Source: a virus (Duplodnaviria > Caudoviricetes). From it: a DNA stretch of 64,000 nucleotides. Under the pieces are notes generated by a model. That model had not been told where the DNA came from. It worked only from the letters and a program-made list of their open reading frames with translations, and made no database searches. The stretch spans positions 1 to 64,000 of IMG/VR virus record IMGVR_UViG_3300031836_000002; one strand, given 5' to 3'. The position numbers were made by a program, and so were the translations under genes. Positions within the stretch are counted from its first letter, which is position 1, and each line of letters begins with the position of its first letter. Below are positions 2,445-19,616 of this stretch, piece after piece.

Positions 2445-2748
2445 CGTAGGAATCCAGTTCCTTCTTCAAAAGTCGCCCTTTCAGTTCCGGAGCTTTTCTC
2501 CAGACCCAGCTCTGTTTCGGGGTGGTAACGAACCACTCACTCTCTACTTCCTCGATGGAATTTATCTGAAGGATGACATCCTTCTCAGGATGCACTATCA
2601 GAGAGACCTCCAGCTCGTCTTTGTCGTCAGAGACATTTCCTAGAAGGACTATCAGATCAAGATCTGTCTTGTCACTGATGGCGTGCACTCCGAAAGGGAA
2701 GAAGGCTTTGAACTTCTTCGTAAACTCTTCTTTTGTTATTTGAGCCAT
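2437..2748 (-). CDS. Small acidic hypothetical protein, candidate immunity protein
   Basis: 103 aa; overlaps the stop of the giant effector gene (translational coupling). Confidence 0.55.
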   Translation of the reverse strand: MAQITKEEFTKKFKAFFPFGVHAISDKTDLDLIVLLGNVSDDKDELEVSLIVHPEKDVILQINSIEEVESEWFVTTPKQSWVWRKAPELKGRLLKKELDSYDV

Positions 2749-5700
2749 TGCTTCTTCACCTTGTTCAGTGCTTCCAGTACGTTAGCTTTCATCACCAAGC
2801 GCTCCTCAATAGGAAGCCCTCGGATCATTTCAATGCCACGCTTCTTCAGTGCCTGTATCGCGTGATTTCTCTTGGCTGAGTCCTTGAAAGCGTACACCTC
2901 AACGATGTCCAGCAAGGCTGCCGAATGGGGAAGCATGGTCTCGTTAGCTGATCCGGTGAACTTCTCCAACGCGTACTTGGGATTGGATGGAGCATCCGAA
3001 GACTTCCACTGCACATCCCCATAGCGGTCATAGGAGTAGGAGTACGTCCGAGTACGGAGAAGAGCTGCTGGGTCGAAGAAAGCATTGAAGCTGTTGTGTT
3101 CAGAAATCGAATGGATTCTGGTGTACACGTTGCTGGCAGAGTCATTGGTCTGGTCAGTTGTGGCTGACATTCCATTGACCCAGTAACCGTTCTGGCGAAG
3201 ACGTTCTTCCGCTCCCAGTGAGCCTCCTACAAGAGATTGTCGGAGAGGGTCATTCGTGGATGATGTCATCAGCATCTTCCCTGTCTCTCGGATCTCCTCC
3301 GGTGTGAAGTCGTAGCGGATCCAGTGGGGCTTTCCTGTTTCCATTTCAGGCTGGGACATCATCTGGTGGTCGTATTGTGGCAGGTAAAGCTCCTCTTTCA
3401 GAACTCTGCTGACCTTCTCTTCTCCGAAGTGCTTGGTGTGGAGGTCTCTCCAGAAAGTTAGCTCCTCTTGAGAGGTCATGGAGTCGCTAAGAGTCTCTAG
3501 GAACGTCTCAGACACGTCACTCTTCTGCGTCTTGAAGTCTTGCAGGTCAGCCTTGGCTGCGGCGTATGGAGACCCTACCTCGTGCATTCTGTTGTCGAGG
3601 ATCTGGTACATCTCCCTCCAGTACACCAGCTCGGCTCCAGCCTCGTCCATGGGAGTGGAGTCGATACCCATGGTCTGAAGAATTCCCTCGATTCTCTCCA
3701 AGGAGTTCGCTACAGCTGCTGTGTCCTTACCAGATCCGTCTGCTCGGAACATCACCTTGCCTCGTTGGCTGGCTACGGTGTTGGTCTGTCCACTATTTCG
3801 GAAAAATACACGCTCACCAGTATCAAGCTTGATCTCGTACTCGACGCCACTCGATCCCTCGACGCCTCCTGTGGATTCCGGGTTGGAGGTCTTGATGTTC
3901 TCCTCCACAGATCCGGACATCTCGTTGGTGTGGTGGTTCAATTTCACGACGTAGCCGAGAGACTTGGGCTGCTCGACAGTGACCGGGGTCCACTCAGACG
4001 TGTCCAGTTCAGAGCTATTGACGAAGCTAACCTGAGCAGTGTCCAAGTTCTTCAGAAGGTACGAACCGTTCGCCATCAATGTGGCTGTCTGTACCCCATC
4101 CGGGTTCGTGTATACCTTCAAGTCATCTGAGAGATTCAATGGAGTGAACTTCTCGATTTTGGGTGCTACCTTGCCATTCTCCTCATGGGCCTTTTCAATG
4201 TCTGCCAGACGTGGTTGGTAGAAGTCCAGAAGCATCTTGTACTGATCCACATGGACCATGGGCACAGTGGTTCCAGACTTGAACTTGTAGTGGTCCACTC
4301 CCACCACGGAGATGTTCGAGATGAGGTTCGGTGACCACTCCTCAAAATCTTCTCTAATGGTCTTTGCCGTCTCTGCAAATTTGGTCATCTTCGCGGCGTT
4401 GTAATCCTTGTCCAACGCGTGATGGTTCACGGTCTTCGCGGCATCCAAGAGACTGGAGTGATGAACATCCACAGCGCTGAATCCCTGAGAGGCTGACTTG
4501 TCCTTGTCAAACTGAGCTGTAGCCGTCTGGAGGAACTCAAGGACAGCTTTCTGCTTCTTCGGTCCAAGTGTTAGCTCACCCAGAAGGTTTTTACTTCCAC
4601 TCTCGTACTCATCTGTCCAGACAGTGGCGAAGCCTCCTTGAATGTCAGCTCCTCCCACCATGGTGGATTTTCCAACTGAGCCGGTGGTCAATACCTGTTC
4701 GTGTAGTCGAGAGTCTCCCAGACCTGAAAGTACATCGCCCAAAGGGGTGTCTGGGATCTCTGGAAGGACTCCAAGCTTGGAGTCTTTGTAGGCTCCTGCC
4801 CAGAGGGTTTCGAAGTCTACACTCAGGTGGTCTCGCCGGTCTAGAACAGCTGCCATGAGACCTTCAAAGTCCTGTGATACCAACGTGCCGTCGATCTTGT
4901 AGGGAACGTCATAGCCCGTGTCTCTGCTCTTCATTCCTTCGACCATCAAGTCTCGGATAGAGGCATCATCAATCTTCGAGACGTTGGTAATTCGACGTTG
5001 GATCTTGAGGTAGGCCGCGTCTGCTGTGGCTTTGTCGATCTTTCCTGCACGCATGGAGTCGAACAGTTGGGTGTAGACGGTCTTGGCGTTGCTGTCTGCT
5101 TTGTGGTCCCCGGAGAGTCCCTTCCACGAGCCATACGATCTGAACGCTCGACCCTTGTCAATTCCGACAATCTTTCCACTGCCATCAATGATGGCGTTGT
5201 CACCCTTTGTGTCGTCGTTGTCTAGGAGCCAGTCAAGAACGTGCTCCCCTCCGACCCCGGCGATCTGATCCACACTCAGGGTTCCGTAGTCGGCTCCCAT
5301 GAGGTCACCCACGCCATGTACCTTGGACTGCAATAGGCCATACTGGCCATCAATGGTGACCAGACGAGGCTCAGCGGAGTTGAATCCCCAGAGGCGTCCC
5401 AGAGAGTTTCCTAGCCCTTCGACCTCGGCTCTGAATCGTCCATTGTCGGTGTCTGGACGCGGCTTGAAGAAGTAGTCGTTTCCGTGCTGGTCGGAGTACT
5501 CCGCAATGGGGTGTGTGCCTTGCTTGACCGTCTGGAGAGGCTTCTTGGTGTACACCGGAATCAAAGACTCTAGGTACTGCTCGTGAGACTTCTTTTGGAA
5601 ATAATCGGTGACAGCCTTGTTCTTGACAATCGACGGGTTTCCAAATGTGCTTGCCGCTAATGCTTCTTCGTAGATCGCTGTCAGTTCCGGGTTGCTCTCT

Positions 5701-8700
5701 GCCACATCGTCGTAGTACTTCTCGGAAAGAGAAGTTGTCCAGCCCTCGGTGGGGAATTGGGAGTTGTCGAACAGTTGATCATATGCCTTGGCTGGAACGA
5801 TGTCATCGGTCCACTCCACAGGATCAGAGAGGGTTTTGTTTCCGTCCTTGGATCGCTTCTGTGCCGATAGAGATAGCTTGTCTACCAAAGCCTTTTGATT
5901 GTTTCGGTGAGCAAACACCCAAGCGCGTCGATCTGCCACCGTCAAGTGCTCTGGGTATTTCATTTGAGCCTTGATCAAATAGTTGTCTAGCTCAGCTATG
6001 GGGATTTGGGTTGTTCCCATCGGAGTCCAGTCACCCTTGACTGGTCGAAGTGCTGACACCTCTCCGGGGACTGCTGCTGCCCAGTGGACCTTGTGGGTTC
6101 CTTCATTCTCTTGGTAGCCGGGGTGCTTGTATCCAGATTTGTGTGCTTTTCCCTCGGCTGCTGCGGCTTTCACTTCGATGTTGTACACCTGAACGAAGTC
6201 GCCCTTGTTGAAGGCTGAGATCCACTGCTGCTTGTCGTAGATGTCCATCTTGGTGGAATGCAGACCAATAATCTCACCGTTGCCTATGGACATTGAAGCT
6301 TTCTTGATCCAAGCCTTTTTCTCTGCGTTGGTGGTCACGTTTACCGAGTCCATCAACTCTTCGGGCATGACAGCGGATCCTTGGATGTCCCAAGTGAAGA
6401 GCTTCGTGGTGTTGGAATCCGGGATCTCTGTATTCACGCCCGCGAGCATGGCGTCTACTGCATCTGCTACAACTTTGAGCTTGTCGTCATTGCTCTGGGA
6501 AGTACTCTTGTCGTCATCGAATGGGGTGCTGGGCTGCTCGACGGCATACTTAAGGACAAGAGCTGCTTCGTATACTGCTCCAGCTTCCTTCACAGCATTG
6601 ACTACCTTATTCTGCTCAGCTAGGGTGCCTTTGTTCTCTGAGGTCTCGTACTCCTTGAATAGCTTCTGTGCTTCCAAGAGAGAGTACGTGGACACCTCCT
6701 TGCCAAAAAATGTCACATCTCCTGTGTACCCCTGAGGCAGCACGGAGTTTCCGAACTCATCCGTGAGCTTTCCCTGAACAAAGAGGGTCTGAATCTTTGC
6801 CTTGGTGAGCTGAACAGGTTCTGCATCTCCGTGAGATTTGATCTTGTAGTAGGGGTAGTAGCTGGACGCAGACTTCAATACCTCTTCAGGAGTGGGGTCC
6901 CCATTCGACTTCTTCCACGAGCCATCTGCTTGCTTGGTGTGGCTATCCATATCGTCATAGTTGCCCACGATCTGTGCACCTGTGGAGGCCTCGAACAGCC
7001 ACAGAGCTGTAGTCTTCTGTCCTATCTTTCCTGTCGAGCCAACAGTCGCACTCTTGGGTTTGGTGACAGTAACTACGTCTCCATTGACTTCATACGTCCA
7101 CGCCTTCGCCCCGGAAGGAGAACCGTTGAAGTACGTGCCGTCTTCCAAAGCCTCTACGTTTTTCAATTTAGGCTTGAGGACTGACTTGTTCGTGCTCGAA
7201 GTCTTCTTTTCCGCTGGCTCTGGGTAGTCGCTAGGAATACCTAGGTACTTGTTCATTCCGGCCTTGTGGTTAGCCTTCACCTTGGCTGTCGTCAGGGAGG
7301 TGGCCGCACCTGTGGAGTTGACGTATACTCCTGTGCCATCTTCCTTGACCACCATGTACGTTGGTCCTCCGCCTGTGTACTTTCCGGGATGCAGACCACT
7401 CTTGTTCTTCTCTGTGTCGATCTCGTCTAGCTTCTTCAGCTGACCAAGAGACGCTGCATTCTTTTGGGTACCTCCTATCCCAATTGAGATTCCCTCTTCG
7501 TCCGCGTTGAAGAACTCCCATTGAGTGTCGGTGGTCTTTGTGTGGAAGCCTCCGAAGGTGTCTTCAAATATGTCACCCTTCTTGGCATTCTCTACATCCG
7601 CTGGGGTCGCATCGGCGTTGTCGGAGTAATCAAGACCGTCATCAGAGTTGGGGAGCTTCTTGAGGATGTCTCCTATGGGGTCCTGAGAATCTTCTTCGAG
7701 AAGCTCAGTCTTCAGTTCAGGGATGGATCCGTAAACAGTGCTTTCCCAGACATCATCATCTGAGAAGAGTCCCGTGAGGACTCCATCGTCATCCAAGTAA
7801 TTCCATTGGTCTGTCTGCGTCTTCAGGAAGTGTCCTCCAGCCTCGGCTGGTACCACGGTTCCTTCAGGAGCATTGATGATGTCGGCTGCCTCGGTAAGCC
7901 CATCTCCCACGTTCTTCGATGTCTTCTCTTCCTCGGCCTGCGGGAACTTGGTCAGCTTGCTCTTCAGAAGGTCGATGAACTTCTGCTTGGTGACGGTCTT
8001 GTCCTTGTCGAACCCTACGATGTCATTGGGGCTGAGCTTTCCTAGAGCGTTGCCTTTCTTGTTCAGCTCGCTCTTGAAGATCTTCCCGTTGAAGCCTTCG
8101 AGGATCTCGATGGCTTGCTCGATGTCGTCCTTGGTGAAGGCTCCTCCAGTCTCACCGGTGGGTGTGGTCTGGGACTCTGCACTTCCGATGTTGACCGTGG
8201 GGCCTTCAGAGTTCTTCTCTTTCTTGGTCTCCGTCTTGATTCCAAGCTTGTCCTTCAGCATCTGAACCACGCCCTGCTTGGGAGGTAGGTCCGGGTGGGC
8301 AGTCTTAGCCCATACCTTGAGTTGGTCCTTCGGTAGCTTGGCTAGAGGGTTCTCAGGAACCGACTTCAGTCCGTAGGCGATCTGGAATGATGGGTGACCC
8401 TCCAGAGCATTCAGAGCCTCTTGCATCTCATCAGGGGAGAAACTCTCGCCGCCTGTCTCGAAGGTCGTTTCGAGAGGGTCTGGGTTCCCTGAGTCCTTAG
8501 AGGCCACCGAGAACTTACCGCTAGCTGCGGAGTTCTTGAGGTCGGAGGAAAGAAGAGTTTGACCTCCGGGAGTCAGCCATTTTCCGGTGTCGAGCTTGGT
8601 GTACTGGCTAAGCTTCCCATCCTTCTTAGCAAAGTTGAGTATGGTTCCATTTTCCAGTTCGTCCATCTGCTCGTAGCTTGTGATGACTCCTTCTGGGGCC

Positions 8701-10304
8701 TTCTCTGGGGCCTTCACAGAGTAAACAATCTCACCCTGATAGTTAGAAATGATGGACTCTAGAGCAGTTGAGTCTACGTCGCTCCCAAATTTACTGTGAG
8801 TCCAGACTCCGCCAGCAAGCTTCTCCCAGTTCAGAGGGTCACTAGGCACACTCGAATAACCCAGCTTGTATTTGTAGTCAATCACGGTGCCGGGTCTGTA
8901 ACCCTCAAGATCCGAAAGGGTGAAGCCTTTCATTGCATCGTCAGGCTCTTCAGTTGATTGTGGCTTAGCCTCTTCAACTTCCGTGGGGGAGGGGATCGAG
9001 TACACCCGTCCGGATTCCAGTGCCTCAGCAAAGGTCTCGGTGGGCCACTCCCATCCCATGTCCGGCTCAACATCTACTGCTTCTTCGGTGTCTTTTTTCT
9101 TGAATGTGAGGAAGGATTTTTCTGAGGTGGGGTTATTAAGAGCCTGCACAAAGAAACCGTCTGGCTCAACCTCATCCAAGGAACTGACCAGCTCTGCTCC
9201 CTCAGGAAGGTTCAGAGACTCCTTAGATGCGACCTTAGGGGCCTCTTCTGTCTTGTCTGGGGTCTCGGTTACTTCTTTGTCCTTTGGGGCCTCTACGGGC
9301 GGCTCAGCGTCAGGTGTTGGCGCTGGGGCCTCATCCGATGGAAGTCCACCGTTTGAGTCTTCTTCCACTGGGGCAGGCCCCATGACTAGGAGACCCTTCA
9401 GAAGAGCCAGCTGTGGGGACTCGATCTGGGCCTCAATGCCTTCTGTTCCCCACGCGCCACTCTCAAGCTTTGTTGTGTTGGCTCCAGACGGACCCGGAAG
9501 GTGGACAGTGGTTCCTACAGCCATAGCCTCAAGAGCTGCTGTAGCTGCCGGAAGATCCATTTCTGAAAATGAGGTCTCAGCCACTTCACCGAAGGTGCTC
9601 TGAAGAGCTTCATCCTCTGGAGTCTTCTCAGGGATCAACTCACCAGAATCGTAGAAGCCCTGAAGGTCCTTCTCGTCCACCTCGACATTGAGCTGTACGT
9701 GACGCCAAGACTTCTCTGAGACCTTGGTGAACTGAGGCTCACCATCTGGGTCTGTGAGTGTGGATCCCACGGGAAGGGATGGCATCGAGTAAGGGCTGGC
9801 CGTTGCCTCGAAGTCGATCTCTTCGTATTTTTCGTCTTTCTCCAGATTTCCAGAGAACTTGACCTTGAGCACATTCTTGAGTCCTGTTGGGATGCTTACC
9901 TCGCCACCGGCTGTGAATGCGTGCACCTCGCCTTCCGGGGTCAGGACGTAGAGGAAGGCCGCTGTTTCCTTGTTCTTCGACTTGATCAGTTTTGATCCTG
10001 CGGGGGCCGAGTACTTCGAGTTCCCTACGGAGAATTTCTTGTTTCCGGTAAGGGCAGACTTCGAGGTCTTGATGGAGGCTTCCACAGCCTTGGCCGTGGA
10101 CGCTGAGGGTGCGCCAGAGATGGCATTCTTTGGAGGAGTGATCCCCAACTTAGCTGCCGACTTTTGCTTGGTCTCCTCCACATCTGGGGTGATGATCGAC
10201 CCTACGGGCAGGCCATAGAACTCCGCTCCCTCTACCGTCCGGACGAACCTAGGATCCGCGGCTAGAAGAATGAGATCTTCCAGCAAGTTGTTCGAGTCGT
10301 TCAC
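2736..10304 (-). CDS. Giant (~2520 aa) polyvalent virion-associated protein: targeting-like N-terminus, repeats, HipA/PI3-PI4-kinase-like domain, C-terminal ART-like domain
   Basis: Start revised to GTG 10304 (SD AGGAGA overlapping the upstream stop). Kinase-like motifs YFFKP, RAEVE..N.L..LWG, DWLLDNDDTKGDN, GIDKGRAF (~4780-5560). C-terminal EERL..G...GMS...D....ASNVYTR...NETM pattern. Located between MuF and protease. Confidence 0.7.
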   Translation of the reverse strand: MNDSNNLLEDLILLAADPRFVRTVEGAEFYGLPVGSIITPDVEETKQKSAAKLGITPPKNAISGAPSASTAKAVEASIKTSKSALTGNKKFSVGNSKYSAPAGSKLIKSKNKETAAFLYVLTPEGEVHAFTAGGEVSIPTGLKNVLKVKFSGNLEKDEKYEEIDFEATASPYSMPSLPVGSTLTDPDGEPQFTKVSEKSWRHVQLNVEVDEKDLQGFYDSGELIPEKTPEDEALQSTFGEVAETSFSEMDLPAATAALEAMAVGTTVHLPGPSGANTTKLESGAWGTEGIEAQIESPQLALLKGLLVMGPAPVEEDSNGGLPSDEAPAPTPDAEPPVEAPKDKEVTETPDKTEEAPKVASKESLNLPEGAELVSSLDEVEPDGFFVQALNNPTSEKSFLTFKKKDTEEAVDVEPDMGWEWPTETFAEALESGRVYSIPSPTEVEEAKPQSTEEPDDAMKGFTLSDLEGYRPGTVIDYKYKLGYSSVPSDPLNWEKLAGGVWTHSKFGSDVDSTALESIISNYQGEIVYSVKAPEKAPEGVITSYEQMDELENGTILNFAKKDGKLSQYTKLDTGKWLTPGGQTLLSSDLKNSAASGKFSVASKDSGNPDPLETTFETGGESFSPDEMQEALNALEGHPSFQIAYGLKSVPENPLAKLPKDQLKVWAKTAHPDLPPKQGVVQMLKDKLGIKTETKKEKNSEGPTVNIGSAESQTTPTGETGGAFTKDDIEQAIEILEGFNGKIFKSELNKKGNALGKLSPNDIVGFDKDKTVTKQKFIDLLKSKLTKFPQAEEEKTSKNVGDGLTEAADIINAPEGTVVPAEAGGHFLKTQTDQWNYLDDDGVLTGLFSDDDVWESTVYGSIPELKTELLEEDSQDPIGDILKKLPNSDDGLDYSDNADATPADVENAKKGDIFEDTFGGFHTKTTDTQWEFFNADEEGISIGIGGTQKNAASLGQLKKLDEIDTEKNKSGLHPGKYTGGGPTYMVVKEDGTGVYVNSTGAATSLTTAKVKANHKAGMNKYLGIPSDYPEPAEKKTSSTNKSVLKPKLKNVEALEDGTYFNGSPSGAKAWTYEVNGDVVTVTKPKSATVGSTGKIGQKTTALWLFEASTGAQIVGNYDDMDSHTKQADGSWKKSNGDPTPEEVLKSASSYYPYYKIKSHGDAEPVQLTKAKIQTLFVQGKLTDEFGNSVLPQGYTGDVTFFGKEVSTYSLLEAQKLFKEYETSENKGTLAEQNKVVNAVKEAGAVYEAALVLKYAVEQPSTPFDDDKSTSQSNDDKLKVVADAVDAMLAGVNTEIPDSNTTKLFTWDIQGSAVMPEELMDSVNVTTNAEKKAWIKKASMSIGNGEIIGLHSTKMDIYDKQQWISAFNKGDFVQVYNIEVKAAAAEGKAHKSGYKHPGYQENEGTHKVHWAAAVPGEVSALRPVKGDWTPMGTTQIPIAELDNYLIKAQMKYPEHLTVADRRAWVFAHRNNQKALVDKLSLSAQKRSKDGNKTLSDPVEWTDDIVPAKAYDQLFDNSQFPTEGWTTSLSEKYYDDVAESNPELTAIYEEALAASTFGNPSIVKNKAVTDYFQKKSHEQYLESLIPVYTKKPLQTVKQGTHPIAEYSDQHGNDYFFKPRPDTDNGRFRAEVEGLGNSLGRLWGFNSAEPRLVTIDGQYGLLQSKVHGVGDLMGADYGTLSVDQIAGVGGEHVLDWLLDNDDTKGDNAIIDGSGKIVGIDKGRAFRSYGSWKGLSGDHKADSNAKTVYTQLFDSMRAGKIDKATADAAYLKIQRRITNVSKIDDASIRDLMVEGMKSRDTGYDVPYKIDGTLVSQDFEGLMAAVLDRRDHLSVDFETLWAGAYKDSKLGVLPEIPDTPLGDVLSGLGDSRLHEQVLTTGSVGKSTMVGGADIQGGFATVWTDEYESGSKNLLGELTLGPKKQKAVLEFLQTATAQFDKDKSASQGFSAVDVHHSSLLDAAKTVNHHALDKDYNAAKMTKFAETAKTIREDFEEWSPNLISNISVVGVDHYKFKSGTTVPMVHVDQYKMLLDFYQPRLADIEKAHEENGKVAPKIEKFTPLNLSDDLKVYTNPDGVQTATLMANGSYLLKNLDTAQVSFVNSSELDTSEWTPVTVEQPKSLGYVVKLNHHTNEMSGSVEENIKTSNPESTGGVEGSSGVEYEIKLDTGERVFFRNSGQTNTVASQRGKVMFRADGSGKDTAAVANSLERIEGILQTMGIDSTPMDEAGAELVYWREMYQILDNRMHEVGSPYAAAKADLQDFKTQKSDVSETFLETLSDSMTSQEELTFWRDLHTKHFGEEKVSRVLKEELYLPQYDHQMMSQPEMETGKPHWIRYDFTPEEIRETGKMLMTSSTNDPLRQSLVGGSLGAEERLRQNGYWVNGMSATTDQTNDSASNVYTRIHSISEHNSFNAFFDPAALLRTRTYSYSYDRYGDVQWKSSDAPSNPKYALEKFTGSANETMLPHSAALLDIVEVYAFKDSAKRNHAIQALKKRGIEMIRGLPIEERLVMKANVLEALNKVKKQWLK

Positions 10305-10311
10305 GGTTCTC

Positions 10312-10533
10312 CTAATCGTCGTACCGGATAGCTCCCGGAACTTCTTCAAGCTTAGATGCGACCGTTTCTATGTCTCCTTCGAGATGAAGACCAGAAACAA
10401 GAATTTGTGCTGCGCTCAAGCTGCCGAACTGATACTTACTATCGGTCTTTCGCGCATCCTCTAGAACCATGAGTAGTCCTGTCGCTGCTGCCCCAAGACT
10501 ATCAAAGAAGAATCTTGCTGTGGTTCCGGACAT
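10312..10533 (-). CDS. Hypothetical protein (73 aa)
   Basis: Fills the gap between MuF and the giant gene; its stop overlaps the SD of the giant gene. Confidence 0.6.
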   Translation of the reverse strand: MSGTTARFFFDSLGAAATGLLMVLEDARKTDSKYQFGSLSAAQILVSGLHLEGDIETVASKLEEVPGAIRYDD

Positions 10534-10535
10534 GG

Positions 10536-11330
10536 TTAGACTCCCGTGACGAACGAAATAATCTTCTTTAGTGCACCTATGATGGCTGAAAAAATCTTGA
10601 GTGGGAGTCTTTGAACTCCATCGGTGTCCATGGTCTGCTGAGGCTCTCCGGGGGACTCAATGTCTAGTTCCTCGAAGGCGTTCTCTAGTGACACCACCAG
10701 AATCACCAAACAGCACCGACAGCGTGGGTGCCTTGGGGGACCTTGAAGGTTAACGTACACCCCCGGAGAATTCCCTGTCACGGGGAATTCATCATTGAGT
10801 CTCACCACGGTGCCATGAAGTCGTCGGCAATGCTCGCACGGAGTGTTGTTGACGAAGTTAGCTAGCCACAACTTCTTGAGCTGGTGTCCAAAGTCTGAAA
10901 GCTCCGCGTAGGAAGCAATCAGGGCATCTGTGTATCCACGCTGCGCACCAACTCCGGCGCTGTGCTGCATTCGAAGGAGGGCCTTACGCCGAGCCTTATC
11001 TTCTTTGTCGCTGGACTTGTAATCCCGGAGGTTACGTCGGATGTCTGAGATGAGGTCCTTGAGGTACTGGGTATTGAAAATCTGGCCCTGTGGGTACCAT
11101 CCGGGGATCTCGGACTGTCGTGCGGTGTGTTCGGCTGCCACGGCTGCACTGGTCCTATACGCGGCGCGGACGATGGCTTCCAGACGATACCGGACAGTCT
11201 GAGCATTCAACTCACCACGATCCCATGCGTCGAACGCTTCGGAGATGTGTACTCTGACCTGATCCTCTATTGAAGAGGCTGCTAGGTGGGCTACACGGGC
11301 TGCCGCGAGCTGCTCCCCAAAACTAGCCAT
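10536..11330 (-). CDS. MuF-like minor head protein
   Basis: KKLW...TPCEHCRRLHG...PPRHPRCRC, the characteristic Phage_Mu_F Cys/His motif; downstream of portal. Confidence 0.85.
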   Translation of the reverse strand: MASFGEQLAAARVAHLAASSIEDQVRVHISEAFDAWDRGELNAQTVRYRLEAIVRAAYRTSAAVAAEHTARQSEIPGWYPQGQIFNTQYLKDLISDIRRNLRDYKSSDKEDKARRKALLRMQHSAGVGAQRGYTDALIASYAELSDFGHQLKKLWLANFVNNTPCEHCRRLHGTVVRLNDEFPVTGNSPGVYVNLQGPPRHPRCRCCLVILVVSLENAFEELDIESPGEPQQTMDTDGVQRLPLKIFSAIIGALKKIISFVTGV

Positions 11331-11616
11331 CAGACTTTCCCGTGGCCTCGCGAGAGAGGATCGCTGTCACTTCGGAGGAGGTTTTTCCTTCCGAGAACAC
11401 TCGAAGCTCTTCTATGAACTTCAGCTTGAGCGTCTTTCTCAAGTCTTGGTTTCCAGTCTTGTCTGCTTTCTGGATCTGCCGTTGAAGAGACTGGAGACGA
11501 ACAAATGTCACCGGTCTGGGTTCGGGGAGAACTTCACTGCCTTTTCCAATCTCGGAGCCGACAGGCTTGTTGAAGTGCTTCTCACCCGCAGGCGTCAAGA
11601 CTTGGCGCGGGGCCAT
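11323..11616 (-). CDS. 97-aa protein carrying the shared N-terminal effector signature
   Basis: RQVLTPAGEKHFNKPVGSEI aligns with the N-termini of the 1044-aa and giant proteins. Confidence 0.65.
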   Translation of the reverse strand: MAPRQVLTPAGEKHFNKPVGSEIGKGSEVLPEPRPVTFVRLQSLQRQIQKADKTGNQDLRKTLKLKFIEELRVFSEGKTSSEVTAILSREATGKSDG

Positions 11617-11617
11617 A

Positions 11618-11815
11618 CTAGCTCCAGTCGCTGGGGATGGTCATCTGCTGACCGGGCTTGAGGTTGTTGAAGTCGTTCTCTATGAGGTCATAGTAGTCCT
11701 CTACAGCCTCAACGCGATCTGCTGGAACGCTGTTATCTTCTAGGTACTTCTCCACTGGATGTTCTGCCATCACATATGAGGAGATCCTAGACATCTCATC
11801 TACTGTCAATTTCAT
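11618..11815 (-). CDS. Small acidic protein, candidate antitoxin/immunity
   Basis: 65 aa, very acidic; second small gene behind the 1044-aa toxin-domain protein. Confidence 0.55.
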   Translation of the reverse strand: MKLTVDEMSRISSYVMAEHPVEKYLEDNSVPADRVEAVEDYYDLIENDFNNLKPGQQMTIPSDWS

Positions 11816-11827
11816 GATTGTTCCGTC

Positions 11828-12037
11828 CTAGGCGAAAGCCTCTGGTGTGAGCTTCCGTGCTTTTTTCTCGTCTATGGCGTCCGTGCCAATCTCGTTGTTA
11901 TAGATCCGCTCGTACAAGCTAGGAGCAACATTTACCCATGCTGATGTCTTCGTGTCCCAGCGCTCTTGTGTGCTCTCCTCTGAGGAGTACCGAAACAGTG
12001 CCCTTACGGACTCTTTGTAATAATACTGAATTTTCAT
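11828..12037 (-). CDS. Candidate immunity protein for the alarmone-synthetase domain
   Basis: 69 aa with YY..LFR...E.WD...W...Y.RI.....I.E..A.KL pattern; directly follows the RelA/SpoT-like C-terminal domain; has its own SD (GGAGGTG) and promoter. Confidence 0.6.
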   Translation of the reverse strand: MKIQYYYKESVRALFRYSSEESTQERWDTKTSAWVNVAPSLYERIYNNEIGTDAIDEKKARKLTPEAFA

Positions 12038-12083
12038 ATTTCACCTCCACTACCACTATAACAGACAGATTGCATTTGAAATC
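12038..12083 (-). promoter_or_regulatory. Internal promoter with the phage palindrome, in front of the candidate immunity genes
   Basis: Minus strand GATTTCAAATGCAATC-N7-TATAGT with extended -10 TG, same geometry as the early cassettes. Confidence 0.65.
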
Positions 12084-15000
12084 TTACGAGATGGCTGAGA
12101 AATTATCTTCCGATGGAATGTCGTTGGCCATCGAGAACATGGCCACGTCCAGCTCAGTGGCCCGTTCACGTTTCTCAGGAGTCAGCGGAGGTGGGCTGAA
12201 GATGGCTCGTCGTTCCTCGTAAAGAGCGTGCATTCTTTCCATCTTCACATCCAGTGATTCTGGGGTGTGGAACTGAAGCTCGTAGGTTAGCCCATCCTTG
12301 GTTGTCACTGCGGTGTTGATTCCTCGGTAAGGAATATCTGTACTCCCCCACGAGTTTTTCACGCGGACGGTGTTTCCCTCGGCACGTAGCTCATCAATCG
12401 CTGATTGAGAGGTCTCCACGTAGCTTCGAGAGTCTGTCACCATGGTGTAGCGAACAGTGTCCCCTAGTTTCTCTCTGGCTTGTGCGTGCGTGATTCCGTC
12501 TGTGGTGGCATCCTTCCGGATCTTTCTCTCCAGAGAGTCCTTCTCCTTGAGTTTGAAGTCCAGTCCGGAAAGCTCTGCCTTCAGGGAATCGGCCAGTTTC
12601 TGTATTCTGGACGTAACAACCGGCTCTTCTGCGGTGGCTTGCTCGTAGGCCTCATCGGTCAGTGCAGAAATCTGCTCATCGGACCCTTCGGGAAGATCCG
12701 CACTGCTTGGACGCCCTGAGGCTACTTTCTTGGCTGCCGCTACCTTCTTGGCTGCCGCTACCTTCTTGGCTGCCGCTACCTTCTTGGCTGCTGCGGCTTT
12801 CTTGGTTGCCTTCTTCTCGGCAACCACCTTCGGAACCTTGAATCCATCCCAAGCTGACTCTCCTGAGGATAGGTAGCTGTCGAATGCTTTCTGGTTAGTG
12901 ACATTGAAAGACTTGCCGTCACCGCTTCCGACCAACGTGGCGGGCTTTCCATCCACATTGTTGTCGAACAGGTTCACCTTGTCGAAGGTTCCATCGTCCT
13001 TCAAGGCGTCAAAGATCTCAGGAAGAACCGCGTAGGTTCCTCGGATCTGAGCTTCTGGAACAATTCGGTGGGAACGCTCGGCACGGGTCTGTGCTCGTGA
13101 GATTCCCTGCCGTGGTTCTAGGTACAGGTAGTTGGCCTCTACTGCGTAGCCTGCCTTGCGGGCTGCTCTCACCTTTGCTCTAACAGAGTCTGCACTGCCA
13201 TTTCCGGTGCCATCGTAGATCACATTGTATCCGCGGTCGAGCGCTGCTGAGTGGAGGCGCTTGGCTAGCTGGCTTGACTCCTCGTGGGAGTGACCTGCCC
13301 AGCTCATGTCTTCCTTCTCGTAGTCTCCGGAGCGGATGCGCTCTAGTGCTAGTTTCACTTCCGGGAACTGCATCTTCACAGCATCCGGGTCGATAAGCAA
13401 GGCTCCGGGGGTTCCCTCGAAAGGCTCAAGGTCGCCGGTGGCGTCGTCCACAGCACGAGATGTGGGGTACTTCGTCAGCTCGGCGTTTCTACCCTTGGTC
13501 ATGGATCCCTTGCCAGAGGCTGGGCCTCCACCGTTCATGTACTGAACAGGGTTGTCCTGAGGCTCTAGTCCTACAAGGAAGTCAGAGATAATCTTGTCAT
13601 GCAATTTCTTGCGGGCTGCCGTGAACTCGCCCTTCTCATTCACGTGCGCTGACGTATAGGGGCTGGCGGACAGTGCTTTGATCTCACCCTCGTCTGGAAT
13701 GCGTGCTGACTTCTCTCCCAAGCTCTTGGGGTTCCGCTTGAATCCCGCCCTGTCGGCGGATGTTTCAGTCTTTGGGGAGGAAGACACTGATGACTTGGCG
13801 GCTTCTACCGCTGAGTCGTAGTCAGCCGCATACTCTCCCTCACCGGGGGTGTATGGAGTGTCAAGCTTGCTCTCGTCGTAAGCCAAGAAAGTAACGTCTG
13901 GCTCTCCTCCGTTGAAAGCTGCGTAGTCTTTCTTGTTCCAGTCGTCCGGAGCTTCGTCGTCGTCCCACTTGAGTCGTGATTTGACTCGAAGTCCTTCCAG
14001 AGCGTAGATTCCGGGGAGCACTGTGTCGAATGCGTCTGCTCGTCGCCCACCTTGAGAAATTGCTGTGGCCATGAGATGTCTGGCTACTTTCTTGTTCTCA
14101 CTGGAGGGGTCTGCCCACACCGAAACAATCTCATCACCATCCTTAAGAGCCATTCCAGATTTTCCATCTTCGGACATGAAGAGTCGCATCTCGGAGTACT
14201 CACTCTCGTCGTACACCCAGACAGAGCTAGAGAATTTGTTGTTCTCCTTCATCTTCTGCATGGCGGAGTGAAATCTGGAAGCTTCAGCTTTTGATTCGAG
14301 TTCGTAAATTACTGGAGTGGAACCACCAGCGGCTTTGATTACCGCGTTACGCTTTGTTCCGTTCTTGAAAACGGCTTTGGTTTTGACGGAAGAACCATCA
14401 ACTACAAGCCCATCTCCTCCGCTGCCTGAATCCGCTCGTCTGTCCAGTGTTTTTGGATCTGACTCTTTTGCTCCGGTGTCGCGTCCTCCGGAGTCACGTA
14501 CTTCAGGTACGCTTTTCTGGCTTCCGGCGTCAGTGGACTTATCGGAGTATTTTTCTCCATTGTTTGACCTTTTTTCGTCTCTTGTTTTATTGAGATTATC
14601 ACGATTTGAAGTCTCTGAGGCATTCTTCGCCTTGTCGTTCGCATCCATGTTTGGAGTTTTCGGATCACCCGTCACATCAGTGAGATCTCCTGAGGAGTCC
14701 GCCATGAGAGATTTGACGCGAGCCTCTGTCGTAGAGGACAGCTCGACCTCTCCCTTGCTGTTGAAGAATCGAACAGATCCATCAGGAAGTACCAACATGG
14801 TGGCGTCTGGAGCGCTTGAGTGTGTGAAGGCTTTGGACCCAGCGGGGGCTTCGTAGTCAGAGCCTCCGGCTGTGAATTTCGTGGGTCCAGAAAGCGTCGG
14901 TGTGGTAACCTTGGCCTTCCCTTTGACCTTCCGAGATGCCTTGGTGCTGACCTTTCCTGCTTTAGGCGTCTCCGCGGCTGCCTTGGCTGCTGCGGCCTTG

Positions 15001-15218
15001 GGATTGGCCTTAGCGGTCTTTACCTGTGCGGGGGCTGAATTCTCCGGGAGAGCTGCTGTAGAGCCTCTACTGGTAGTTCTGGACTGCTTGGAGGCTCCCT
15101 TGGGTGGTGGCTTACCTTTGTTGGCCTTGCGTGCTTTATCAAGAACGTCAGCGGTGATGGGTGTACCAATGGGAAGGCCGTAGTACCGAGACCCCTCTGG
15201 GCTTGCAACCTTACGCAT
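12084..15218 (-). CDS. 1044-aa polyvalent effector: GNAT-like, zeta-toxin-like P-loop kinase and small alarmone synthetase (RelA/SpoT-like) domains
   Basis: GNAT-like segment (GGRRADAFDTVLPGIYALEG..., ~13870-14290); P-loop GGGPASGKGS, IDPDAVK, HEESS, VIYDGT (~12880-13660); LKEKDSLERKI..DTVRYT..YRGIN..YELQFHTPES..H.LYE (~12090-12660). Confidence 0.8.
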   Translation of the reverse strand: MRKVASPEGSRYYGLPIGTPITADVLDKARKANKGKPPPKGASKQSRTTSRGSTAALPENSAPAQVKTAKANPKAAAAKAAAETPKAGKVSTKASRKVKGKAKVTTPTLSGPTKFTAGGSDYEAPAGSKAFTHSSAPDATMLVLPDGSVRFFNSKGEVELSSTTEARVKSLMADSSGDLTDVTGDPKTPNMDANDKAKNASETSNRDNLNKTRDEKRSNNGEKYSDKSTDAGSQKSVPEVRDSGGRDTGAKESDPKTLDRRADSGSGGDGLVVDGSSVKTKAVFKNGTKRNAVIKAAGGSTPVIYELESKAEASRFHSAMQKMKENNKFSSSVWVYDESEYSEMRLFMSEDGKSGMALKDGDEIVSVWADPSSENKKVARHLMATAISQGGRRADAFDTVLPGIYALEGLRVKSRLKWDDDEAPDDWNKKDYAAFNGGEPDVTFLAYDESKLDTPYTPGEGEYAADYDSAVEAAKSSVSSSPKTETSADRAGFKRNPKSLGEKSARIPDEGEIKALSASPYTSAHVNEKGEFTAARKKLHDKIISDFLVGLEPQDNPVQYMNGGGPASGKGSMTKGRNAELTKYPTSRAVDDATGDLEPFEGTPGALLIDPDAVKMQFPEVKLALERIRSGDYEKEDMSWAGHSHEESSQLAKRLHSAALDRGYNVIYDGTGNGSADSVRAKVRAARKAGYAVEANYLYLEPRQGISRAQTRAERSHRIVPEAQIRGTYAVLPEIFDALKDDGTFDKVNLFDNNVDGKPATLVGSGDGKSFNVTNQKAFDSYLSSGESAWDGFKVPKVVAEKKATKKAAAAKKVAAAKKVAAAKKVAAAKKVASGRPSSADLPEGSDEQISALTDEAYEQATAEEPVVTSRIQKLADSLKAELSGLDFKLKEKDSLERKIRKDATTDGITHAQAREKLGDTVRYTMVTDSRSYVETSQSAIDELRAEGNTVRVKNSWGSTDIPYRGINTAVTTKDGLTYELQFHTPESLDVKMERMHALYEERRAIFSPPPLTPEKRERATELDVAMFSMANDIPSEDNFSAIS
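12721..12792. repeat. Tandem 18-bp repeat x4 encoding (AAKKVA)n linker
   Basis: GCTACCTTCTTGGCTGCC x4 (near-identical), between the zeta and SAS domains. Confidence 0.95.
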
Positions 15219-16878
15219 GGTTCATATCCTCCGCTGCCATATCCAACATCTCCCGCGCCAACGATAGTAGCCCAGAACCATCTCCAGTCAGGGACAGCCG
15301 TCTCTCGAACTCTTCCAGATCTTCGTCCTTCTCATCCGGGGGTTTTTCTTCTGCTCCCACGTCTGAAATCTTCTTTAGGAATTCTTCCAGAGTCCAGTCT
15401 CCCTCTAGTCCCAGTTCGGATCCTGCTACGTCTACCGGGGCTGCTGGATCTACCGGGGCTGCTGAGGGATCAACACCCTGCTGCTGAGCTGCCAGATCTT
15501 GTGCCTCTGCCTCTGCCTCAGCCTCAGCCTCCTCACTCTCTCGCATATCCACTTCGTCGTAGTCAATCTCCAAACCAAACTCTTCTGCTTGGTGCTCTTC
15601 GAGCGCTCGCAGGAACTCGGGGGTAACCGTGGTCTGGTTGGCCAGCTTGTCGAACGTGGCTGCAATTGCACCCTTTTGTTCGTCTGTGAGCTTTCCCCAT
15701 GTGAAGGTGGGGTACCGACCTCCGGTGAAGTTGTAGTCCACAAGCTGAGGAATAATGTAGTGGTTGATCTGGGCTGCAATGTCGTCCATGACGGCTCGAA
15801 GCATCAACACAAACATGTCGTCGCCGGGGGCTGCAAAGTTGACTAGAGAACCTTCTCCGGCTCCCGCTCCTTGCTCCTTGTCGAAGAACGACGCGAGGAT
15901 GGACTTCGACATCTGAGAGTTGTGGTGGTTCACCCAGTTCAAGAATTCGAAGGATCCGGCTTCCTTGAGCACCTCTACCTTGAATCCTTCAGGCATCATC
16001 ATCCACTGAGCCAGTGCGAGGTTGGCTAGTGAGGTGTTGAATTCCTTCTTGGACGCTGTAGTGGCACCTGCCGGTACTGTTCCCACGCGGGTACCTACGG
16101 CTGCACGCTGTGCAGCCAAGTGAGCAATGAAGTAGGTCTTGACTTTCTTGTCATAGTGATAAAAAGCAGACTGGAAGAAGCTAACTCCGTAGAACTTGCG
16201 CTCTTCTTCTTGTGCTGCGTAGTAGAAGGCTTGCTCGCGTGGGATGAAAACGTCGAGCTGCTTTCCTCCCATGTAGGAGCGCTGACGCAGGCCGGAGAAC
16301 CCTCCAGACTTGTCCACTATGAACGTGACAGTCTCTGCTGGACGGTGTGCCAGCTTCTTGAGGGTGATCTTCCCAGCAAGAGGTCCGGTCTCAGGTGCCC
16401 AGAAAACCTTCTCGAAGGCTGCAAAGCCATCGAACATTCCCTGAAGCATTTGGCTGATGAATCGGTGGAAGGTGACTGTCATTCCACCACTCTCAGGAGG
16501 AGTTCGTAAGACTGCACTGATGAAGTCTGCTTCCTCTTCTCCATCCTCGGCAGGGACGAACGTAGCGGTGCTCAGAGCTGATCTGATCGGTAGAGTCAAG
16601 AGACGGTAAAGAGCGCGTGCTTGGCCATCCATACGGCGCATGGTGACAAGCTGGCGGACAGTGGGTCCCCACTCTTCACTCTCGTCGCGGAAGACTTCCT
16701 GTAGGTCCTTTTGAGGATCCTTCTTAGTACCATTCTTGATTGGCTGGTACGGAGAAGCGAATGGAAGTAGGGAGTCGGAGCCTAGCTCTACGTTCAGAGC
16801 GGCGATCTCTATGCTCGCAGGCTTGGGTGTCTTCTTCTTGCGATTCGATGTCGGTGTGACCTCATCGTCTTTGGCCAT
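15211..16878 (-). CDS. Portal protein (Mu gp29-like)
   Basis: 555 aa directly after TerL; M.RMDGQARA, GFAAFEKV, YGVS.FQSA, HHNSQMSKSILA, IIPQLVDYNF patterns; acidic C-terminal tail. Confidence 0.88.
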   Translation of the reverse strand: MAKDDEVTPTSNRKKKTPKPASIEIAALNVELGSDSLLPFASPYQPIKNGTKKDPQKDLQEVFRDESEEWGPTVRQLVTMRRMDGQARALYRLLTLPIRSALSTATFVPAEDGEEEADFISAVLRTPPESGGMTVTFHRFISQMLQGMFDGFAAFEKVFWAPETGPLAGKITLKKLAHRPAETVTFIVDKSGGFSGLRQRSYMGGKQLDVFIPREQAFYYAAQEEERKFYGVSFFQSAFYHYDKKVKTYFIAHLAAQRAAVGTRVGTVPAGATTASKKEFNTSLANLALAQWMMMPEGFKVEVLKEAGSFEFLNWVNHHNSQMSKSILASFFDKEQGAGAGEGSLVNFAAPGDDMFVLMLRAVMDDIAAQINHYIIPQLVDYNFTGGRYPTFTWGKLTDEQKGAIAATFDKLANQTTVTPEFLRALEEHQAEEFGLEIDYDEVDMRESEEAEAEAEAEAQDLAAQQQGVDPSAAPVDPAAPVDVAGSELGLEGDWTLEEFLKKISDVGAEEKPPDEKDEDLEEFERRLSLTGDGSGLLSLAREMLDMAAEDMNHA

Positions 16879-16880
16879 AA

Positions 16881-19616
16881 CTACATCATCCCCTTCATCC
16901 CGATAGGCAGCTCAAGAGGCCCTCCGAGCATAAATCCTACCTCGTCACTGCCTTCCAGCTCCGAGATTGCGGAGCCGACTTCGAAGAAGGGAACGCCTAC
17001 CTCTGTACTTCTACCATCGGCATCTTCTTCTCCGCCTGCTTCAATGGCTCCAACAATGGAGCATGCGAGTGCGTCTGCGAGGTCTTTTGAGTTGTGAACG
17101 AACACCCCGCCAGACAATGCGAAGTTATGAAACTCGTCCACTTCTAGGTCGAAAACAGGCTCAGGCTCGTCCAGAACCACCGGAATGACGGCTCGAACCT
17201 TGTGGTTGTTATCTGTCGATGCAAGCAATTCAGGGAAGGTCACTCTCTCCACTCGAAGTCTGCCCTCCACTACCTTCCAGTCACAGTTCAAGATCCGTGC
17301 GGCTTCAGCTCTGTTGGTAGCTCCTTCCCGAATAGCTCCAAGGATGCTGTCCACAGTCACGTCCTCCCGGAAACGGGCTACCCTCCGGCCCGAGTAGGCG
17401 GCTGCTTTGCGCTCTGGATCGGCTGCCCATTCAGTGTGGCCTGCTCGCATTGCCACGACTCGATCACTCCAAAACTCGTTGCCGTGGTGAGTCACATGAT
17501 CGACCTGAGAAATCATCTCCAGATTCTCGGGTCGATTGTCGATCTTCACCTCGTTCTTGTGGTGTACTACCTCATGAGAGACCCGCGTGCGCCCCTCGAA
17601 ATGTTCCGACACCATGTGGTGCGCCAGAGTCCGCAGGCCATCCTTGTCAGTGAGTCTGGTGTAGCCACCGTTGACTGGCCAATTGAAGGTAATCGGCATA
17701 AGTCGGTCGATTCCCGGTCGAAGGTCCTTAGCCTCCCGATAAGAGCCATCACGGAGCATCCAGAGGTGTTCTGGAGTGCAGCGAGCGACGTAGCCGCTGT
17801 CCAAAATCACGTCCACCAACTCTGTGGTCATCTTGGTCATTCTCCCTCTGGCGAGTCCCGGCTTGATCTTGCCACAAGCATTGACAGAGTAGACCCACAC
17901 CTGTTGCCCAACCAGTTCGCTGATTTGGGGGAAGGTCCCATCCAGCAGCGGAATCCGTGTCTCACCAACAAAACATCCGTGCGGAGGATGATCCACTTTG
18001 TTGTTCACACGGTTCAGAGAGACCAGTTCGTCCATGAGTAGCTGATCGAAGGGCATGTGGAGTCGCCCATCTGAGGCCACATCCTTGAGGGTCTTCCACA
18101 CATCGTCGTTGATGTCCGCGGAGACTCTCTTGGATTCGATGCCGTGCCTATTGAGGACTTGGATCGTGTCGGCTGATTGGAACCCGTCGAAGGTGAAGCT
18201 CCGAATGTAGAAGCCTCGTTTGATTAGTTCGAAGGCCAGCATGCGTGCCCACCGGATCTGGATCTCTCTGGGAGGGAGGGCTGAACTCTTGGCAGAGAAT
18301 CCAAAAACGAAGTCCACCTTGATGATAGGTACCAGCGTGGCTATCGGGTAGAGGCCACCCTCTTCGTCCTCCACCATATCTACCTGCTCGATCCACTTTT
18401 CCACGTGGCTCATAGCAATTCCAGCTCGGTCGCCCTTGATCGCGAGGTCGCCGTGCATGGCGTAGTTGGCTCCTTGAATGGGAACGAAATCTGGAGCGAA
18501 GTTATATACCGGCTCCCATCCCTCCGTCACGGTGCCTGTCTGATCGGACTTGATCTTGGTGAGCTTGTAGTCCACCGTCAGTGGAGACTCATCTCGAACC
18601 ACAGCGTTTTTGAAAATAGCGGGGTTACGGAAGTAGGCGTCCACAGCACGGGTCGGCTTGCACTCGTACATAGCTGCTGCGGCATCCGGGTCTTCCTCGT
18701 AGTCTTCCGCGAAGTCTTCCTTGCCGGACACGCGAGGATTCACTTCCCAAGTTGCTAGTGGCCCAGAGACGAAGTGGATCGAGGAATCTCCGTACTTCTC
18801 GATGGAGGCATTGCCTTCGGCAGTCAGCCGTTGGATTGTCGATCCCTTATAGCGAGGGTACGAGATCGAGACGCGCTTGTACGTGCGTGGGAATCTGGTA
18901 GCTGCTGACCCTTTGAGCATCTTCAGGATGGACTCCGCGGATGTCGATGCCTCTCGTGCTCGCTTGCCCTGACCCACCATCTCGTCCTTGGCCTTGAATG
19001 CGTCGATCTCATCGGCAACACCAAGGATGAGGTTCAGCCCTTCTTGACCTTCGGCATCAGAGTGGCCAGAGATAGCTTCGAGGTATTTGTCATACTGGAT
19101 GTGACCCTGCTTGGGGTCGGCCTTATCTTTGAACCACCCGCGCTTGACGGCTTCAGTCATCGGCTTGAAGAAGGCTTGGTTAGCCTGTCCGGAGTTGGCC
19201 GCAATGTTGAGCATGTGGATGGAGTCAGTCTCAGGCATCTGGAAGTAGAGCTGAGGAGATTTCAGACATAGGAGAAGATATGCGATCCTCAATGAAGAGA
19301 GTCGAGCAATCATGTCCTTGCCTGCACCCTTGCCGTATTGGAGGGTGATGATGTTCTTCACTGGAAGATCGGCTGCCCAGTACTCAGAGTCAAATTCTTC
19401 TGCCATGAGAGGGTACAGCTCTGGATAGTAGACCCGCTCGATGTGACGAATAGCGTTCGCCTGCACAGTGGAAAGCTCTACATTGGTCTGGCCTAGGAAT
19501 TTCTTGTCTTGGACAAACGTCTGTAGGGGGACAGGCTCTTCCTCAAAGATCTGAGCCAGAGTACTCTGTTCTGGTTCCTCGTCTTGGAGGAAGAATCCTG
19601 AAAGGGGTCCTTGCAT
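16881..19616 (-). CDS. terL: Terminase large subunit with intein
   Basis: Walker A GKGAGKD, Walker B VADEID, nuclease motifs HGDLA..GD and DHPPHG|SKDLADA split by an intein. Confidence 0.92.
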   Translation of the reverse strand: MQGPLSGFFLQDEEPEQSTLAQIFEEEPVPLQTFVQDKKFLGQTNVELSTVQANAIRHIERVYYPELYPLMAEEFDSEYWAADLPVKNIITLQYGKGAGKDMIARLSSLRIAYLLLCLKSPQLYFQMPETDSIHMLNIAANSGQANQAFFKPMTEAVKRGWFKDKADPKQGHIQYDKYLEAISGHSDAEGQEGLNLILGVADEIDAFKAKDEMVGQGKRAREASTSAESILKMLKGSAATRFPRTYKRVSISYPRYKGSTIQRLTAEGNASIEKYGDSSIHFVSGPLATWEVNPRVSGKEDFAEDYEEDPDAAAAMYECKPTRAVDAYFRNPAIFKNAVVRDESPLTVDYKLTKIKSDQTGTVTEGWEPVYNFAPDFVPIQGANYAMHGDLAIKGDRAGIAMSHVEKWIEQVDMVEDEEGGLYPIATLVPIIKVDFVFGFSAKSSALPPREIQIRWARMLAFELIKRGFYIRSFTFDGFQSADTIQVLNRHGIESKRVSADINDDVWKTLKDVASDGRLHMPFDQLLMDELVSLNRVNNKVDHPPHGCFVGETRIPLLDGTFPQISELVGQQVWVYSVNACGKIKPGLARGRMTKMTTELVDVILDSGYVARCTPEHLWMLRDGSYREAKDLRPGIDRLMPITFNWPVNGGYTRLTDKDGLRTLAHHMVSEHFEGRTRVSHEVVHHKNEVKIDNRPENLEMISQVDHVTHHGNEFWSDRVVAMRAGHTEWAADPERKAAAYSGRRVARFREDVTVDSILGAIREGATNRAEAARILNCDWKVVEGRLRVERVTFPELLASTDNNHKVRAVIPVVLDEPEPVFDLEVDEFHNFALSGGVFVHNSKDLADALACSIVGAIEAGGEEDADGRSTEVGVPFFEVGSAISELEGSDEVGFMLGGPLELPIGMKGMM
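17091..17975 (-). mobile_element. Intein (295 aa) with HNH homing endonuclease
   Basis: Starts CFVGETRI, block B CTPEH, ends FDLEV..HNF...VHN followed by Ser; internal VHHKNEVKIDNRPENLEMI HNH motif. Confidence 0.92.

Follow-up and report, generated by a model that had tools for sequence, protein, structure and literature searches.

Why would a tailed phage carry three different enzyme domains on one polypeptide, encoded between its portal gene and its minor head protein gene? This question is raised by P0001, a protein encoded in the first 64 kb (the window) of IMG/VR virus record IMGVR_UViG_3300031836_000002, a 124,209-bp record with direct terminal repeats that is rated 100% complete. The reading favoured here, with moderate confidence, is that P0001 is a packaged polyvalent effector of a large, apparently virulent tailed phage, and that the product of the adjacent small gene, W69, is its IapK-type inhibitor. 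The parts of the locus are listed below, with lengths in amino acids (aa); pLDDT denotes the predicted local distance difference test.

12084-15218, minus strand: P0001, tagged three-enzyme protein of 1044 aa; intact open reading frame (ORF) between the Mu-type portal gene and the MuF-like gene.
15084-15218, minus strand: N-terminal tag, residues 1-45 (RKVxxPEGSRYYGLPIGTPITADV...); conserved in 12 homologues with differing payloads and also found on a giant protein of the head module.
14694-14903, minus strand: small beta module, residues ~106-175; makes up the latter half of the N-terminal unit that P0001 has in common with the giant protein (BLASTP E 2e-13).
13809-14417, minus strand: GNAT-fold domain, residues ~268-470; pLDDT 95; only GNAT structural matches.
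12843-13646, minus strand: zeta-toxin-family P-loop kinase, residues ~525-792; PF06414 E 2e-20; aligns to 1gvn_B.
12721-12810, minus strand: Ala/Lys linker (AAKKVA)4; 18-nt tandem repeat (TRF, 5.0 copies, 90% matches).
12114-12686, minus strand: Apk/EAS-type RelA-SpoT-homologue (RSH) synthetase, residues ~845-1035; motifs syn1-5 intact.
12058-12078, minus strand: palindrome plus extended -10-like element, within the 46 nt that separate the stop of P0001 from the start of W69.
11828-12037, minus strand: W69, 69 aa; IapK-like candidate inhibitor of the synthetase, from co-occurrence, hhalign and a complex model.
11618-11815, minus strand: W65, 65 aa; putative partner of the kinase; always accompanies a zeta-bearing gene.

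The P0001 reading frame is uninterrupted and spans exactly the interval listed, on the strand that holds almost all long ORFs of the window; its ATG start overlaps the portal stop by 8 nt. The full-length AlphaFold2 model of P0001 was moderately confident (mean pLDDT 63) and served solely to set domain limits and to match folds locally. It consists of a short N-terminal segment, disorder, the beta module, disorder again and three folded domains on linkers, with low-confidence linkers at residues 33-105, 174-267, 469-493 and 793-843. The initial annotation had described three enzyme domains in tandem, GNAT-like, zeta-like and synthetase, separated by low-complexity linkers. This arrangement was borne out by Pfam, phmmer and structure matches, and Foldseek recovered GNAT, zeta-type and SaEAS/Tas1-type folds; the (AAKKVA)4 linker that it had pointed out lies within the last linker, and the homologues are without the repeat.

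The C-terminal domain was identified as an RSH synthetase (residues 855-1029) by a phmmer match to SaEAS (PDB 8vx3, E 4e-14). Over 141 residues it is 43% identical (E 1e-31) to the MuF-Apk2 toxin domain of phage IPP32, an S. pneumoniae prophage. A tblastn search with P0001 gave matches to the synthetase domain in 35 Streptococcus phage records, and the C-terminus of XopAD effectors (NCBIfam) matched with E 1e-27. The Pfam RelA_SpoT model misses this domain, which had to be recognized through its PDB, NCBIfam XopAD, PHROG and tblastn matches; PADLOC gave a weak match only (E 0.038). The synthetase motifs quoted in the initial annotation were all located, at residues 889-902 (syn1), 919-925 (GDTVRYT), 964-969 (YRGINT), 979-985 (YELQFHT) and 997-1004 (HALYEERR). 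An adenosine-type signature of RYT in syn2, GxN in syn3 and YH in syn4 has been described (Paulet et al., PMC12226406). In P0001 this Apk signature is present as VRYT (922-925), GIN (966-968) and FH (983-984), the last with Phe instead of Tyr, and Asp920 aligns to Asp121 of SaEAS, the residue changed to Ala in the crystallised protein. Foldseek ranked SaEAS (E 7.5e-11) and Tas1 (3e-7) above RelQ, RelP and Rel (3e-4 or weaker). Together with the signature residues, this ranking agrees with the earlier proposal that the domain is of the Tas1/Apk type and not a housekeeping RelA. Judged from these residues, the product is most likely (p)ppApp, although (p)ppGpp or both could also be made. Key synthetase residues are lost in the homologues P0003, P0004, P0005 and P0012 (alignment A3), where the syn2 Asp is replaced by Asn or Thr, Glu-x-Gln of syn4 by Arg-x-His, and the His/Tyr of syn5 are gone.

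The central domain matches Zeta_toxin (PF06414) at residues 553-754 with 73.6 bits against a cut-off of 22.3. Alignment to zeta toxin (1gvn_B) places the Walker A motif GGGPASGKGS at 563-572. The catalytic base is kept, as IDPD aligns with IDND of zeta and Asp612 is the equivalent of Asp67; likewise, DGTGN aligns with EGTGR of zeta and Thr671 corresponds to Thr118. Foldseek neighbours of the domain are zeta, PezT and the NAD kinase AvrRxo1. The kinase is probably active.

The first enzyme domain, whose fold spans residues ~285-470, was folded with AlphaFold2 using an alignment of 30 homologues. All top Foldseek matches (probability 1.0) and all top VIA matches are GNAT acetyltransferases, as are all 50 of the matches listed. 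The best VIA match is 1yvk (Z 11.1, root-mean-square deviation 2.8 A over 133 residues), and RimI is matched with Z 10.3. Structure comparison was needed here because the GNAT-family profile gave only a low-complexity match to PDB sequences. Motif B, DTVLPGIYALEGL, lies at residues 398-410, and its Tyr405, which we take to be the motif-B general acid before the GF/GL turn, is invariant across the 30 family members. The domain is a probable RimI-like acyltransferase with an atypical CoA loop. An exhaustive search gave 2256 representatives of its homologues, mostly within proteins of 2000-4000 aa. One family member also bears an ADP-ribosyltransferase domain, a pairing described for one GNAT family of polyvalent proteins by Iyer et al. 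(PMC5512222).

How could such a payload be connected with the virion? The tag and the beta module are common to P0001 and the giant protein. When a hidden Markov model (HMM) of the tag was compared with the ORFs of the genome, P0001 and the giant protein were found, plus W97 weakly. The beta module is predicted as six strands and a helix (pLDDT 52-82) and is found in the giant proteins of all relatives. Among 24 metagenome homologues of P0001 the tag is well conserved and the payload differs, being zeta alone, GNAT plus zeta, zeta plus synthetase, or all three. Some related phages are without any P0001-type gene, and the tag is still on the giant protein in all of them. The neighbouring genes of the head module are as follows.

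16881-19616, minus strand: large terminase, 911 aa, with an intein splicing domain and an HNH nuclease (Pfam); PHROG HNH matches at residues ~646-721.
15211-16878, minus strand: Mu-type portal, PF06074 E 5e-36; immediately upstream of P0001, with stop/start overlap.
11323-11616, minus strand: W97, 97 aa; begins with a weak version of the tag motif (E 0.073 with the tag HMM, ranking third among the ORFs of the genome).
10536-11330, minus strand: separate MuF-like minor head protein, 264 aa; PF04233, 33 bits; 57-67% identity among relatives.
2736-10349, minus strand: giant protein, 2537 aa, with N-terminal tag and beta module as in P0001.
1067-2149, minus strand: Mu gpI-like protein, a member of the head module.

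The genes of this Mu-like head module follow one another on the minus strand in the order terminase, portal, P0001, W69, W65, W97, MuF-like protein, a 73-aa ORF, giant protein and Mu gpI-like protein. The order terminase, portal, P0001, MuF, giant and Mu gpI-like is kept in related phages. P0001 itself has no PF04233 match, the MuF-like protein being separately encoded. In more distant relatives (P0017-P0019) synthetase and zeta domains are fused to MuF; a metagenome scan for MuF-like relatives gave 9 loci, mainly short. All three domains of P0001 recur elsewhere as cargo on MuF or minor capsid proteins. Minor capsid protein gp4 of Microbacterium phage Caron ends in the same GNAT domain, the synthetase is carried by Streptococcus and Pasteurella Apk2 proteins, and ORF030 of cyanophage P-SS2 is a MuF-zeta fusion. 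This last protein belongs to a gene cluster whose products were detected by mass spectrometry in purified virions (PMC2784084). By analogy with this distant relative, and from the gene position and the common N-terminal tag, we infer that P0001 is injected. The tag, the synteny, the MuF fusions and P-SS2 support, without proving, a capsid-loaded and ejected effector of the polyvalent protein class.

The phage is probably virulent, as no match to the Phage_integrase or Resolvase families was found in the complete 124-kb genome, other integrase types not having been searched. A megablast of 10 kb around the P0001 gene against 50,697 phage records gave no close DNA relative, and no tRNA genes were found within the window.

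Further observations were made on the tagged proteins and their neighbours. In the giant protein the tag starts ~34 residues past the earliest TTG that could serve as a start codon, so translation may actually begin further downstream. This protein has no match in Pfam, PHROG, NCBIfam or PADLOC, and its C-terminal half has, by eye, a DxxxxN-type kinase-like stretch at about residue 1630. In one lineage without a P0001-type gene (L010/L011:10953-18971) a GNAT-fold domain, 62% identical, lies inside the giant protein at residues 505-684; payload domains thus appear to move between both tagged carriers. Homologues of W97 are separate ORFs or are fused onto the C-terminal end of the portal (L014:8123-9994; L010:8073-9989; L022:6117-7994; L009:9630-9998). 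The portal-fused homologues show a clearer tag motif, RRVATKEGSDKFGAPIGTLIT, and in them the tag motif is therefore physically linked to the portal. A zeta-only relative (L007:7941-8573) has an additional 210-aa ORF right after the tagged gene, with a QGKGF stretch resembling a GNAT CoA loop. In related phages the terminase has 611-630 aa and is without the intein/HNH insertion.

The second part of the proposed reading concerns the small genes behind P0001. W69 is confined to synthetase-bearing loci: all six such loci with DNA have it, as does one more going by the size of its ORF, and the three zeta-only loci do not. Every one of the nine distinct zeta-bearing loci with DNA has W65, and zeta-less relatives are without it. 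In five other synthetase-bearing loci the two modules form one fusion of ~150 aa with W65 behind W69, and in the window they are split; a word-based search for further fusions found two. In Apk2 prophages a 68-72-aa iapK gene occupies the same place and is followed by the HD hydrolase gene aph1. A profile of the W69 module matched the IapK profile in hhalign with E 1.8e-4 over 56 collinear columns (probability 48%). The complex of the P0001 synthetase with W69 was modelled with an ipSAE of 0.90 in three runs, the best of three controls giving 0.31; among solved complexes 58 of 80 reach the benchmark mark for this score, and among mismatched pairs 2 of 110. The partner has a pLDDT of 90 in the model, and the runs have at least 95% of contacts in common. 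The modelled interface covers syn3 (961-970), Glu980 of syn4, and Tyr1000 and Arg1003-1004 of syn5. IapK acts by occluding the acceptor site (PMC12226406), and the interface predicted for W69 matches this mechanism. When the W69 plus W65 profile was compared with PDB sequences, solved antitoxins included, nothing meaningful was found. An epsilon- or PezA-like identity is not claimed for W65, for which the Atlas search gave only generic small helical neighbours.

W69 and W65 are preceded by a sequence element of their own. A palindrome, ATTGCAAATGCAAT, and TGnTATGCT, then a conserved leader and a Shine-Dalgarno sequence, stand before many accessory genes at 30384-59245 on the minus strand. The element in the 46-nt gap is a zero-mismatch copy of this accessory-arm element, which has 6 matches in the window where 0.00 would be expected. 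The -10-like nonamer TGnTAT[AG][GC]T is found at 7 sites in the 124 kb, always on the minus (coding) strand. Scans for sigma-70 and terminator consensus sequences stayed at chance level. The accessory-arm element looks, from its sequence, like an operator-promoter unit for one regulator. Its copy upstream of W69 means that W69 and W65 could be transcribed independently of the head operon.

Put together, these observations suggest the following course of events. The tag and beta module would most likely bring both P0001 and the giant protein into the procapsid, close to the portal and MuF proteins, and both would leave the virion together with the DNA. The payload would be three enzymes on flexible linkers. 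The kinase, with catalytic base and P-loop intact, may act on a nucleotide or nucleotide-sugar substrate, and the Apk2-like pyrophosphokinase would probably turn ATP/ADP into (p)ppApp and drain the adenylate pool. As an IapK-type inhibitor, W69 would occupy the active site of the synthetase on its acceptor side. W69 and W65 would be transcribed from their own palindrome-promoter element, and with W69 under its own promoter the phage could silence the synthetase during assembly and shortly after infection.

Several points weigh against this interpretation. The product (p)ppApp is not certain because SaEAS, which carries the same signature residues as the P0001 synthetase, makes both (p)ppApp and (p)ppGpp and prefers guanylate acceptors (PMC12691689). 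In the kinase, Arg120 of zeta is lost, its equivalent being Asn673. Thr118 and Arg120 of zeta contact UDP-N-acetylglucosamine (UNAG, UDP-GlcNAc), Arg120 touching its UDP phosphates (PMC3062530); owing to this replacement, and because the family also includes the NAD kinase AvrRxo1, UDP-GlcNAc is not secured as the substrate. The GNAT domain is below the Pfam threshold for Acetyltransf_1 (14.4 bits against 20.7), and its Q/RxxGxG/A CoA loop is unrecognisable, the beta4-alpha3 loop being DPSSENKKVARH, which lacks the glycine pattern and has a Ser in the family consensus. The function of the tag is guessed, and the tag is without a known homologue. The co-occurrence sample of W69 and W65 is small and its loci are related by descent; the hhalign probability is low; and the complex score, obtained with our own shallow alignments, may reflect model memory of a solved Tas1-Tis1-type complex. 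Moreover, a W69-type module is kept at the loci of P0003, P0004 and P0005, which are three-domain homologues with degenerate synthetase motifs. Since the module persists beside such synthetases, a chaperone or adaptor role of W69 could fit as well as an immunity role.

Could P0001 instead act, unpackaged, in the cell that produces it? As a late intracellular effector made along with the head proteins it would, for example, shut down the metabolism of the host or aid lysis by cutting off the supply of cell-wall precursors, W69 and W65 tuning its timing. Over-expressed zeta toxins cause autolysis (PMC3062530, PMC4179160), the P0001 gene would be co-transcribed with late genes, and the own promoter of the small genes would permit a timed release. 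However, it is hard to see what a tag common to P0001 and a giant head-module protein would do for an enzyme free in the cytoplasm, and fusions to MuF or minor capsid proteins are known from elsewhere for all three domains, with the P-SS2 relative present in virions. A drain on ATP during DNA packaging would, in addition, hurt the phage. This explanation is thus considered unlikely.

The resemblance to Apk2 raises another possibility, that P0001 is a MuF-type polymorphic toxin for interbacterial competition, a role proposed for the Apk2 of temperate phages, released at lysis or borne by particles and killing neighbours without the immunity genes. The C-terminal domain is closely similar to Apk2 and the downstream small gene remotely similar to IapK, and modular swapping of the payload is typical of such toxins. 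But P0001 is without a MuF domain; with no integrase or resolvase family in the complete genome there is no apparent lysogen to profit; and the complete 124-kb genome, searched for an Aph1-type hydrolase, gave no HD_4 match at E <= 1. We regard this role as quite improbable. That P0001 is mainly an internal head or ejection protein whose enzyme folds are decayed or structural, inactive passengers would be in line with the degenerate synthetase motifs of the four homologues, the atypical GNAT CoA loop and the disordered linkers that make up about one third of P0001, but it is very unlikely given that P0001 keeps the five syn motifs, Walker A, the residues equivalent to Asp67 and Thr118 and the tyrosine of GNAT motif B, with an inhibitor-like partner maintained alongside.

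If P0001 is a packaged effector with its own inhibitor, a speculative extension, to which we give little weight, is a dead-man's switch. The toxins would be injected while the antidotes stay behind a host-readable promoter, so that a cell whose defence destroys or silences the phage DNA makes no antidote and is killed; the tag would be a swappable capsid-loading system. Were this true, expressed phage DNA would provide the IapK-like and W65 proteins that end the toxin pulse, immune hosts would be punished, and the shared tag would be a general means of swappable cargo loading in this phage group.

How, then, does the locus compare with known systems? The Apk2 MuF toxins have a homologous toxin domain with the RYT/GxN/aromatic-His signature, a gene right after the portal, and a downstream 68-72-aa gene that is remotely like W69. 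P0001 differs from them in having no MuF within its own polypeptide, a tag of another kind at its N-terminus and two additional upstream enzyme domains. Its phage genome has no Aph1 hydrolase match at the HD_4 threshold given above, and the immunity module in P0001 relatives is usually fused to a second module. MuF toxins have been described as temperate-phage specific, whereas the phage of P0001 has a genome of 124 kb without an integrase or resolvase family match. The closest solved structures to the C-terminal domain are Tas1/Apk1, a type VI effector, and SaEAS, an exported protein (8vx3); their delivery modules, PAAR and the type VI secretion system for Tas1/Apk1 and a Sec signal peptide for SaEAS, are unlike that of P0001.

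The kinase shares its fold and P-loop, together with the catalytic Asp and the equivalent of Thr118, with epsilon/zeta and PezAT, which are UDP-GlcNAc 3'-kinases, and with AvrRxo1, a NAD 3'-kinase (PMC3062530). It differs from all of these in having Asn for Arg120 and in being embedded in a multi-domain, virion-type protein, and from epsilon/zeta and PezAT in that the locus shows no antitoxin whose sequence could be recognised as epsilon- or PezA-like. The polyvalent proteins (Iyer et al. 2017, PMC5512222), like P0001, unite several enzyme domains of the conflict type on a single chain whose gene lies next to those for head and packaging functions. In the accessible text of that work GNAT, zeta-like kinase and RelA/SpoT domains are listed as components, with MuF as a hub, and the domain combination of P0001 and its tag-based architecture were not found described there. 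Unlike those proteins, P0001 has dedicated inhibitor-like genes with their own promoter.

Phage-delivered (p)ppApp-synthetase toxins have hitherto been known as MuF fusions of temperate phages. The present locus puts what looks like the same toxin-inhibitor pair in a large phage without sign of lysogeny, on a different carrier and joined to two further enzymes. Should the tag prove to be a capsid-loading signal, it would be a defined handle for the study of how phages load and deliver enzymes. The fused small modules of the relatives match a two-toxin payload and offer a test case for toxin/immunity co-evolution. The shared N-terminal tag, the three-enzyme payload, the IapK-like inhibitor with its own promoter and the probably virulent host phage are the distinct features of the locus, which is a new architecture of the known polyvalent or MuF-associated toxin-immunity systems and not a new kind of system.

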